Source of the DNA: an uncultured Verrucomicrobiae bacterium
GTDB lineage: Bacteria; Verrucomicrobiota; Verrucomicrobiia; Limisphaerales; JAFGQR01
Length of the DNA: 64,000 nt
NCBI GenBank assembly: GCA_963788655.1
Contig: CAWBHS010000088.1
Span: 255,580-319,579, forward strand
Reading direction: 5' to 3'
The first letter of the stretch is position 1. Each line of letters opens with the position of its first letter. The notes beneath the pieces were generated by a model. The model worked only from the letters and a program-made list of their open reading frames with translations. It was not told where the DNA came from and made no database searches. Positions 17,314 through 19,901 of the stretch are shown piece by piece. Both the position numbers and the translations under genes were made by a program.

Positions 17314-17982
17314 CTAGATGTAGTACATCGCGGGTTCGCGATCCTGGTTGACGTTCACGGGCGTGGTGCGTCGCTCCGTCGCGAGAGAAGCCCCGGAGTC
17401 AACGGACGACGCCGCCGTGCCTGCCTCGACGACGCCGGGGTGCTCGCGGATCACGGCGGGAATTCCGACCGCAGTGGCGCATTCGGGGACGTCCTTGACG
17501 ACGACGGCGTTCGCGCCGATGCGCGCGTTCGAGCCGATGACGACGGGTCCGAGGACCTTCGCCCCCGCGCCGACGACGACGCGGTCTCCAACGGTCGGGT
17601 GACGCTTGCCCGGCGACATGCTCGTCCCGCCGAGGGTGACGCCGTGGAAGAGCAACACGTCGTCTCCGACGACGGCGGTCTCGCCGATGACGACGCCCAT
17701 GCCGTGGTCAATGAATACGCGACGCCCGATCTGGGCGCCGGGGTGAATCTCGATGCCCGTGCGCGAGCGCGCGTGCTGCGACAGGAGCCGGGCGGGAACG
17801 CGAAGGTGGTGGGTCCACATCCAGTGCGCCGCGCGGTGATACCAGACCGCGTGCACGCCCTGATAGGACCAGACGATGACGAACGTGGAGCGCGCGGCGG
17901 GGTCCCGATCGTGCGCCGCGCGAACGTCCTCGCGCATCCTCGTCACGAGGCCCACGCGTCGGCGTGATGCCTGCTTCGTCAT
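17314..17982 (-). CDS. cysE: Serine O-acetyltransferase
   Basis: [36 protein letters not shown]; downstream of cysK. Confidence 0.95.
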
Positions 17983-18075: not shown

Positions 18076-19011
18076 TCAGTCCATCAGATCCGCGTACAAC
18101 ACGGACGACAGGTACCGCTCCCCGAACGAGGGGATGATGACGACGATCGTCTTGCCCTTGTTCTCGGGACGCTTCGCGACGATCGCTGCGGCACTCAGCG
18201 CAGCACCAGACGAGATGCCAACGAGCAGGCCCTCCTCCTTCGCGGCGGCACGGGCCGTCTCGATCGCCGTTTCCGAATCGACGTCGATGACCTCGTCGTA
18301 GATCTCCGTGTTGAGGATCTCGGGAATGAAGTTCGCGCCGATGCCCTGGATCTTGTGCGGGCCGGGCTCGCCACCGGTGAGGATCGGCGATTCTGCCGGC
18401 TCGACGGCGACGATCTGGATCGACGGCTTCTTCTTCTTGAGCGCCTCGCCCACGCCGGTAATCGTCCCTCCGGTGCCGATGCCCGCGACGACGATGTCCA
18501 CCTCGCCGTCCGTGTCGTCCCAGATCTCGACGGCCGTCGTCGTCCGGTGAATCTCCGGGTTGGCCTCGTTCGCGAACTGGCGCGCGAGAATCGCACCCGG
18601 ACGCTCCTTCGCGATCTTTTCCGACTCGTCGACCGCTCCCTTCATGCCCGCCGCGCCCGGCGTCAGGATCAGCTCGGCGCCGAACGCCCGGAGAAGAGCG
18701 CGACGCTCCTTGGACATCGTGTCCGGCATCGTGAGGACGACGTTGTAGCCGCGAGCAGCGCCCACGAACGCGAGCGCGATTCCCGTGTTCCCGCTCGTCG
18801 CCTCGACGATGGTCCCGCCGGGCTTGAGCGATCCGTCCTTCTCCGCGGCGTCGATGATCGCGACGCCGATGCGGTCCTTGACCGAGTTCGCGGGGTTGTA
18901 GAACTCGAGCTTGGCGAGCACGGTCGCACCCGCGCCCTTCGTCAGCTTGTTGATGCGCACGAGCGGGGTGTTCCCCACGAGCTTCGTCGCGTCGTCGTAA
19001 ATCTTTCCCAT
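18076..19011 (-). CDS. cysK: Cysteine synthase A
   Basis: [50 protein letters not shown]. Confidence 0.97.
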
Positions 19012-19176
19012 GTCAGTTCCTTCGTTCAGGCGGGGCGGGCGAGGCCGTCCCGTATTCGTCGGTTCGTGGATCGCGCGACAGCGCGGATGCGTCATCCCGC
19101 GAGACGGCGGGGGCGCCGGGGCGAGCACTGGCGTGGCAGAGGTCTGCCGCGTTCCGCGGGTGCGGGTGCCAGCGCT

Positions 19177-19299
19177 CTACAGACAGCGGCAGCAGCCCTC
19201 GCCACAGGCGCAGGTGCACATGCGGGGAGCCATAGAACCCATCATGGGGGCAAGGGACGACGTCGTCACGCACGTGACGCGGAGCGTGGTGTCGCTCAT
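19177..19299 (-). CDS. Cys/Met-rich leader peptide (40 aa) upstream of cysK
   Basis: MSDTTLRVTCVTTSSLAPMMGSMAPRMCTCACGEGCCRCL; GAGGAGG RBS; 6 Cys in last 13 codons; stop 165 nt before cysK. Confidence 0.8.
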   Translation of the reverse strand: MSDTTLRVTCVTTSSLAPMMGSMAPRMCTCACGEGCCRCL

Positions 19300-19454
19300 G
19301 TCCTGCCCTCCTCTTCCGGGTGGTGCCAGGGTAACGCCGCTCCGCCCGTGACGCAATCGAGACAGTGGTGGTGGCGTTCGTCTCGAATGCGTGCGCGGCG
19401 CCCACGTCGCGACTAGGCTCGGAATATCCGCAACGACGCGGAAAGGAGTTGGCC

Positions 19455-19901
19455 ATGGCCAGTTCGCTGATGTACAAGGAACTCGTCGCGGAGCCCGCCG
19501 CGGTACTTGACGGCATCTCCGACCTCAAGCGACGCTCCCATATCCTGTCCTCGCTCGTCCATCTCGAGGCGGAACCGAAGACGGAAATCGTCGAAGGCGC
19601 CACCTGGCGCGAGACACGCAAGGTACTCAACGCCACGTTCACGTGCGACGTCGTCGTCTCCAAGGTGACCCCTGGCGTCGGTTTCACGCTAGAGACCGCG
19701 CTCGAAGGCGAGACGATTGACTTCATCTATCGGGTGAAACCGTCGGCGATGGGCGTCCGGCTCGAGATCGAGATCGTCGAAGCCGAGGCGGTCGGGCTCA
19801 ACAAGCGCCTGCGCGGACTCATCTCGGGCGGGGCGATGCGCATGGCCAAGGACATCGTTGAGCGCGACATCGACGACCTGCGGGCGGCGCTGCGTACGTA
19901 G
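19455..19901 (+). CDS. SRPBCC/polyketide cyclase-like protein
   Basis: AAAGGAG RBS; EGATWRETRK and DIDDLRAAL pattern typical of SRPBCC fold. Confidence 0.65.
   Translation: MASSLMYKELVAEPAAVLDGISDLKRRSHILSSLVHLEAEPKTEIVEGATWRETRKVLNATFTCDVVVSKVTPGVGFTLETALEGETIDFIYRVKPSAMGVRLEIEIVEAEAVGLNKRLRGLISGGAMRMAKDIVERDIDDLRAALRT

Follow-up and report, generated by a model that had tools for sequence, protein, structure and literature searches.

A conserved cysteine-rich leader peptide with a covarying stop-codon hairpin precedes cysK-cysE in Demequinaceae-type DNA and may act as a Rho-dependent attenuator

The window analyzed here, i.e., the whole 64,000-nucleotide stretch, contains on its reverse strand a cysK gene encoding cysteine synthase A (18076..19011) and, downstream of it, a cysE gene encoding serine O-acetyltransferase (17314..17979). 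Both score above their NCBIfam cut-offs (TIGR01139, 454 bits with a cut-off of 351; TIGR01172, 236 bits with a cut-off of 211), which confirms the identity given to these genes in the initial annotation. Upstream of cysK, on the same strand, we observe a 40-codon leader ORF (19177..19299) that contains seven Cys codons and four internal Met codons and ends in a TAG stop. A Shine-Dalgarno sequence, GAGGAGG (19307..19313, reverse strand), is located 7 nt 5′ of its ATG, and 165 nt separate its stop from the ATG of cysK (19011), which has a Shine-Dalgarno sequence of its own, AAGGAA (19017..19022, reverse strand), whose pairing with the leader is no better than that of shuffled sequences. Six Cys codons are found in codons 28-40 and the seventh is codon 10, and the four Met codons, all within codons 19-27, form a cluster at codons 19, 20, 23 and 27 (19219..19245, reverse strand), with three of the four kept in the five closest leaders. 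The Cys control region (codons 28-39; 19183..19218, reverse strand) includes a consecutive Cys pair at codons 36-37, at least two adjacent Cys codons near the 3′ end also being seen family-wide, and ends with a penultimate UGU codon (19185-19183). Every detail of this ORF in the initial annotation, i.e., its length, six Cys in the last 13 codons, the position of the four Met codons, the GAGGAGG and the 165-nt distance, was reproduced. Of the 2,330 frames that end in a stop within the 100-kb segment of 68% GC in which the window lies, a single one, the leader ORF itself, has at least six Cys among the 13 codons preceding its stop, and in the rest of the source assembly 12 of 263,704 frames do. 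Searches of Pfam, NCBIfam and Rfam returned no match for the window leader ORF or its RNA. The leader ORF of the window is real and conserved. Three points were absent from the initial annotation, namely a promoter pattern 28 nt 5′ of the leader, a conserved hairpin that begins within its stop codon, and the foreign origin of the window relative to its assembly.

Several features indicate that the window does not belong to the organism named for its assembly. The source assembly has a GC content of ~59% overall, and the source contig changes from ~59% to ~68% near 220 kb and remains at ~68% to its end (~220,000-319,579), with the window located wholly in the 68% part. The CysK of the window is 84-85% identical to Demequina-type proteins, compared with ~57-62% to the CysK of the assembly's own order, and the source assembly contains a second cysK, on contig C58, which resembles that of its nominal relatives. 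In addition, three Demequinaceae genomes (G111, G112 and G107) align collinearly with the window at ~75-88% DNA identity, and no collinearity was found with the single same-genus genome of the source assembly (G001). On this sequence evidence, the window is most likely Demequinaceae DNA brought into the source assembly by a chimeric join, so that the taxonomy of the assembly is not applicable to it. Since the window is foreign to its assembly, we dropped the nominal relatives, whose CysK is merely ~57-62% identical, as a comparison set, and used the family of the Demequina mangrovi genome (G041; 78 genomes). A divergent 148-codon ORF at 19455-19901, on the forward strand, has no Pfam or NCBIfam match and lies in a stretch that is unmatched in the collinear genome G111.

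A CysK match was present in 70 of the 78 family genomes, and the upstream DNA of all 70, together with the window, gave 71 Demequinaceae-type loci. The sequence TGT-NNN-TAG-RGC occurs before cysK in all 71. A motif-free scan detected, in 69 of these loci, a frame upstream of cysK whose last 16 codons include at least three Cys, and the two loci that it missed keep the end motif with fewer Cys codons. A 15-nt end motif is present in 67 of the 78 family genomes, nearly always in single copy and at cysK. A leader start, giving ORFs of 20-45 codons, could be assigned in 69 of the 71 loci, the other two being one cut by a contig end and one (L132, genome G115) that has kept the end motif and has a Shine-Dalgarno-led AUG out of frame with the Cys codons, i.e., a degenerate copy or an assembly error. 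Outside the family, we analyzed 56 cysK loci from related families of the same order, which were picked among the best CysK scorers and of which two were found via the motif itself and one is a Cellulomonadaceae MAG; the end motif (UGU-NNN-UAG followed by a hairpin) is present in 28 of the 56, and a start was assigned in 24. Three cysK loci of other families that lack the leader peptide (L190, L191 and L198) have in common another conserved block upstream, which may be a site for protein binding or a regulatory RNA of a different kind. Inspection of 18 cysK loci from less closely related actinobacteria (Leifsonia, Intrasporangium, Knoellia and others) revealed no leader of such form. The alignment of orthologous leaders proposed with the initial annotation thus bears out conservation, in 71 of 71 Demequinaceae-type and 28 of 56 related-family loci, and it provides 93 leaders with assigned starts (69 Demequinaceae and 24 from other families).

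Examination of these 93 leaders demonstrated that their constraints are at the level of nucleotides. The penultimate codon is TGT in 93 of 93, yet 310 of the 345 other Cys codons of the Demequinaceae leaders are TGC; the stop is only ever UAG; and codon 2 is AGC (within the 19294-19299 region of the window) in 63 of 69 Demequinaceae leaders, compared with 4 of 37 ordinary genes. Cys codons reach ~18 codons upstream of the leader stop, they number from one to nine per leader, and their spacing is not fixed. For example, the leader at L166 (G113) has three Met codons and a single Cys codon, the penultimate UGU. Where loci were long enough to check, cysE was found downstream of cysK in 38 of 38. 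These observations bear on an explanation in which the product is a small Cys- and Met-containing metal-binding or sulfur-storage protein that acts in trans, with its position before cysK incidental. Cys-x-Cys and Met motifs of this kind are akin to those of copper-binding peptides, and the strong Shine-Dalgarno sequence suggests abundant synthesis. Against this, the number of Cys codons varies and their spacing is free, what is constrained is UGU, UAG and the AGC at codon 2 rather than a protein motif, the leader is always fixed before cysK, and no Pfam or NCBIfam family matches it; we consider a trans-acting peptide highly improbable.

The leader appears to be transcribed from a promoter close to its own start. 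In the window, a predicted -35 box, TTGCGT (19351..19356), and a predicted -10 box, TACCCT (19328..19333, 28 nt 5′ of the leader ATG), are found on the reverse strand, and the position of the -10 box would imply a 5′ UTR of ~22 nt. A sigma-70 scan of the window locus returned no match. The pattern that these boxes follow, TTGNNN-17/18 nt-TANNNT, is found no more than 80 nt from the start in 68 of the 69 Demequinaceae leaders, with 22-33 nt between the -10 box and the ATG across the family, and an SD-like 4-mer precedes 68 of 69 leader starts, compared with 5 of 150 internal AUGs, although both features were among the criteria for choosing leader starts. In the leaders of other families, the promoter pattern is present in only 3 of 24. 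In the 110-nt stretches before cysK it was found in none of the 93 loci. Since promoter pattern and Shine-Dalgarno sequence precede the leader and no such pattern precedes cysK, the leader is, in silico, a leadered ORF, as had been suggested, and cysK is without an obvious promoter of its own.

Beginning at the G of the leader UAG we identified a hairpin, P1 (19123..19177, reverse strand), with a 10-bp outer stem (5′ arm 19177-19168, 3′ arm 19132-19123) and a branched loop, which folds at -34.2 kcal/mol (z -3.3). A helix of at least 7 bp starts at this G in 87 of 93 leaders, compared with 6 of 51 ordinary gene ends and with at most 9% at control offsets off the helix. In the 71 of 93 sequences used for covariation, 92.8% of cells are paired and 6 of 10 pairs show two-sided changes, in an alignment that was cut on the very helix tested and whose kin are not independent; the covariation score was reached by none of 500 shuffles, and slid controls gave 26-42%. 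The pairing of the two arms beats 90% of shuffles in 55 of 69 Demequinaceae and 22 of 24 other-family leaders. Alternative 5-bp partners for the 3′ arm of P1, i.e., the leader start (91% of leaders) and the Cys tract (72%), are no stronger than in shuffles. For example, pairing of the 3′ arm with the leader start (AUGAGC) exceeds shuffles in only 2 of 69, and we did not adopt it. The first four pairs of P1 are nearly invariant and lie within ~10 nt of the penultimate UGU, so placed that, with this UGU in the A site, P1 starts at +12 as counted from the codon in the P site. According to the available text of PMC7282821, the mRNA channel accommodates 11 nt, and binding of tRNA to the A site is slowed by stem-loops at a distance of 11-12 nt.

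Between P1 and the cysK Shine-Dalgarno sequence is a C-rich spacer without a U-tract (19027..19122, reverse strand), which is a candidate zone for Rho loading and termination. Its C/G ratio is 1.47 after P1. Measured from the leader stop to the Shine-Dalgarno sequence, the ratio is 1.55 in the window and above 1.5 in 80 of 93 leaders, compared with 1 of 51 ordinary gene ends. The spacer is 89-235 nt long across the family and is fairly structured in the window copy, where it folds at -38 kcal/mol. A terminator scan found no intrinsic terminator in the window, and a U-tract follows P1 in 1 of 93 leaders. In this one, an other-family copy (L234, genome G261; also contained in L306), a U-run directly 3′ of P1 gives what looks like a canonical terminator.

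Constrained folding with a ribosome footprint showed that P1 forms with a probability of 0.91-0.96 when no ribosome is present or when the ribosome is at least four codons upstream, falling to 0.33 with the ribosome at the last UGU and to 0 at the stop. These values bear on whether P1 itself is the attenuator, as a U-poor terminator or a pause hairpin whose base a ribosome stalled on the penultimate UGU would keep open. The lowering of P1 to 0.33 when 12 nt from the last UGU are masked, the near-invariance of the four pairs closest to that codon, the U-run of L234 and the retention of only the penultimate Cys in L166 would all suit such a design. Most leaders, in contrast, have Cys codons 4-18 codons before the stop, where stalls keep P1 at 0.92-0.96 and would silence cysK in starvation; since Cys codons reach up to ~18 codons before the stop, stalls there must give read-through with P1 intact, which argues against P1 as a terminator. 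The U-tract present in 1 of 93 leaders also speaks against it, as does the report, in the available part of bioRxiv 10.1101/2022.06.01.494293, that U-less hairpins are poor terminators in mycobacteria. We regard attenuation by P1 itself as quite unlikely.

The same folds leave the accessibility of the cysK Shine-Dalgarno sequence at 0.54-0.59 in every ribosome state, and a duplex between the Cys tract and the start region of cysK beats 90% of shuffles in only 1 of 69 Demequinaceae and 1 of 24 other-family leaders, compared with 55 of 69 and 22 of 24 for P1. The initial annotation had proposed examining the leader for structures that mask the cysK ribosome-binding site, and neither result supports such a switch. 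The fold test had no positive control, the leader of the sulfite-reductase operon described below likewise showing no switch, so that its negative result is weak and the comparison of the duplex with shuffles is the better evidence. Post-transcriptional control could take the form of an effect of ribosome position on cysK translation initiation, as at Ms5788A, or on mRNA stability, with a stalled ribosome and P1 shielding the transcript from nucleases. The lack of a positive control and of a canonical terminator at the window leader leaves room for such control, and the sole experimentally dissected Cys leader works by sequestration of the Shine-Dalgarno sequence, as far as the available text of bioRxiv 10.1101/834739 describes. 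With a duplex no better than shuffles in nearly all leaders, a constant accessibility and a spacer whose length varies from 89 to 235 nt, we judge post-transcriptional control unlikely.

We prefer a reading in which the leader ribosome gates Rho. When Cys-tRNA is scarce, the ribosome would wait at the Cys codons upstream of P1, as it would at Met codons if these were hungry, and P1 would stay folded, leaving little naked C-rich RNA and allowing RNA polymerase to reach cysK. The last UGU would serve as the final checkpoint, because P1 begins at +12, where the mRNA channel opens, when this codon is in the A site. With ample cysteine, the ribosome would run to the UAG, melt P1 and leave, and the C-rich RNA so exposed would be loaded with Rho, which would terminate transcription upstream of cysK or early within it. 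Against this model count the equilibrium folds, in which melting of P1 frees on average only about one extra unpaired C, the structured spacer of the window and the terminator-like copy at L234. A Rho profile search gave matches above the cut-off in 4 of 5 relatives' genomes and a partial match in the fifth. For the Demequina mangrovi locus, the share of sampled words present in public RNA runs was only 0.05-0.08. The cysteine-responsive leader-peptide control proposed in the initial annotation is strongly supported by conservation and by the precedent of Rv2334A-cysK1-cysE, and the locus is very probably a Cys-sensing leader-peptide switch of some kind on cysK-cysE. A Rho-dependent termination route is our best reading of its output, at a confidence that we would call even.

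The Met codons of the leader raise a separate question. In the last 20 codons of the Demequinaceae leaders, 133 of 1,379 codons (9.6%) are AUG, a five-fold enrichment over the 2.1% of the leaders' own 5′ parts and the 2.0% of the window genes; in the leaders of other families Met is at this background level (2.1%), the enrichment thus being seen in Demequinaceae only. At least two Met codons are present in 52 of 69 Demequinaceae leaders. Met directly precedes Cys in 85 of 143 cases, compared with 33 ± 4.5 by permutation, and the numbers of Met and Cys codons in a leader show no correlation (rho -0.17, p 0.17). Two other reasons for keeping Met codons, RNA pairing and internal Shine-Dalgarno-led starts, are unsupported, since Met codons are paired to the same extent as the rest (0.73 vs 0.73) and internal AUGs lack Shine-Dalgarno sequences (an SD-like 4-mer in 5 of 150). 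All 22 metY-negative genomes among the 66 scored have leaders with at least two Met codons, and all 17 leaders with none or one are in metY-positive genomes, a link that fails a tree-aware test (independent pairs, median p 1) and that we do not count as evidence.

Demequinaceae-type genomes appear to make methionine by direct sulfhydrylation, not from cysteine: MetB was above the cut-off in 1 of 78 genomes, MetY was found in 50 of 78, and MetZ in all three genomes checked. A rationale of the thr type via transsulfuration is rejected on this count of MetB, and, since MetZ is present and MetB almost never is, CysK is not an obvious step toward a Met precursor.

A second leader, unrelated in sequence and also containing Met and Cys codons, lies before a NirA/SirA-type reductase gene (an assignment below NCBIfam cut-offs) that heads sulfate-assimilation genes and is located upstream of cysD in several loci (for example L352:1362-1433; also L353-L381, L336, L338, L343 and L344, and L382-L411). 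It was found in 33 of 35 Demequinaceae loci and is apparently leaderless. Among the 32 Demequinaceae copies with at least three Cys codons, all have Met, which makes up 78 of 712 codons (11%), and in other families the leader is present in 16 of 30 loci, all with Met (7% of codons). It also occurs where the cysK leader of the genome is devoid of Met. Its last Cys codon is always within AUG-UGU-C, four codons before the stop, and this invariant sequence may be held partly by RNA pairing; conserved helices downstream and a C-rich stretch before the Shine-Dalgarno sequence were also found, and constrained folding showed no switch. In the sub-clade to which the closest relatives of the window belong (G106-G117), no sulfite-reductase match was found in 12 of 12 genomes and no CysD in the four tested, these genomes being small and probably incomplete. 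Since Met recurs in an unrelated sulfur leader, selection for Met is supported. Dual sensing makes sense at the sulfite-reductase operon, because Demequinaceae-type genomes carry MetZ, and often MetY, both of which use sulfide directly; that the regulated enzymes feed both Cys and Met holds for this operon and not clearly for cysK-cysE.

The cysK leader may therefore be read in two ways. In the first, it senses cysteine only, and another reason, such as the local sequence or the context of codon pairs, spread by duplication of Met-Cys units, would account for the Met codons, a reading that can be combined with any output. Ten of the 69 Demequinaceae leaders (L137 included, mostly from one clade) and 14 of 24 others lack internal Met, the order of Met before Cys is not explained by simple sensing, the CysK reaction is not an obvious step toward methionine where MetZ is carried and MetB almost never is, and a shortage of Met could also block initiation on the leader. 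Weighing against this, Met codons are neither more paired nor preceded by Shine-Dalgarno sequences, they occupy the same range of codons as Cys (-5 to -22) and are retained, at changing positions, in every main clade, and Met is present in 32 of 32 Demequinaceae and 16 of 16 other-family copies of the sulfite-reductase leader. We give sensing of cysteine alone an even chance. In the second reading, Met starvation also opens the cysK leader, which we put forward tentatively, at somewhat less than even confidence. A more elaborate form takes the Met-Cys pairs in the two unrelated leaders as marks of a regulon that senses Met and Cys, with the cysK leader using an entry-site hairpin and a last checkpoint on a wobble UGU to gate Rho; it is possible, and we hold it as speculative.

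Attenuators of several kinds resemble this element in part. Salmonella mgtL is a Rho-dependent leader-peptide attenuator, and thrL and ilvL are multivalent classical attenuators. As in thrL, control codons for two amino acids alternate toward the 3′ end of the window leader. The logic of thr, in which one product supplies the other, does not apply to CysK in Demequinaceae-type genomes. Like classical attenuators of the trp, his and thr type, the leader has its own Shine-Dalgarno sequence and control codons for the pathway product; unlike these and thrL and ilvL, it has no U-tract and no antiterminator/terminator pair was found. To our knowledge, no attenuator that uses Met codons for control has been published. 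E. coli tnaC, mentioned in the available part of PMC1262725, is another leader attenuator of the Rho-dependent kind. In such attenuators, ribosome position is thought to gate access of Rho to C-rich RNA, as we propose here, with the difference from tnaC and mgtL that the signal would be charged tRNA-Cys or tRNA-Met and that the role of Rho is predicted.

Cys leaders before cysK-cysE are themselves already known. Leader peptides of cys and cbs genes were predicted in 2005 in Mycobacterium, Propionibacterium acnes and Bifidobacterium longum, with Rho proposed (Seliverstov et al., PMC1262725), and, in the available text, these share with the window leader a Cys run near the stop and the lack of an intrinsic terminator, and differ in their taxa and in that no conserved hairpin and no Met are reported, a distinction made by description and not by sequence. 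For mycobacteria, translational attenuation was shown for Ms5788A, Rv2334A was named before cysK1-cysE and the mechanism at other loci was left open, in the part available of Canestrari et al. (bioRxiv 10.1101/834739). The available part of PMC13096801 describes Rv2334A as 22 codons with four terminal Cys, and Rv2334A and Rv2391A as leaderless and without internal Met; in that of PMC13402693, cysK1 mRNA is up on Cys depletion. The mycobacterial polycysteine sORFs, as far as these sources describe them, are like the window leader in being short, in having C-terminal Cys codons and an inferred stall at hungry Cys codons, and in forming the first ORF of a cysteine-metabolism operon, here before cysK-cysE. 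The window leader differs in being leadered, with a promoter ~28 nt upstream and a Shine-Dalgarno sequence, in having its Cys codons interspersed with Met and, compared with Ms5788A, in lacking a duplex of Cys tract and Shine-Dalgarno sequence and having instead a covarying hairpin that starts from UAG. In addition, uORFC-8-2, a Cys uORF before cysS in Rhodobacterales, shares Cys control codons with it (PMC8632094, available text). Our literature search, in which subscription journals were mostly uncovered and attenuation surveys of the Lyubetsky group may list some of these leaders, found neither dual Met/Cys leaders nor such a hairpin family, and hence no published account of this leader architecture or of Met sensing. 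To judge from the sequences, this conserved element works like known Cys leader peptides, yet probably without a leaderless start, Shine-Dalgarno pairing or a classical terminator.

We interpret the conserved leader, for which a promoter and a ribosome-binding site of its own are predicted and whose stop codon is covered by a covarying hairpin, as a Cys-sensing, and possibly also Met-sensing, attenuator of cysK-cysE that acts via predicted Rho termination, and we regard the evidence for this whole reading as evenly balanced. How actinobacterial Cys leader peptides shut off their genes has been open since 2005, with only Ms5788A dissected and its authors allowing for other modes elsewhere. The family described here provides ~100 aligned natural variants, with a covarying hairpin, an invariant stall codon at a fixed spacing and a C-rich spacer, and makes the Rho model directly testable in species that are harmless and can be cultured. 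Should the Met codons serve as a signal, methionine would be added to the amino acids sensed by leader peptides, and if the two leaders form a Met-Cys regulon, leader-peptide attenuation would gain an example in which Met codons exert control and whose hairpin-gated design is new. The geometry of UGU and hairpin, together with the repeated Met-Cys codons, makes these two open questions testable.
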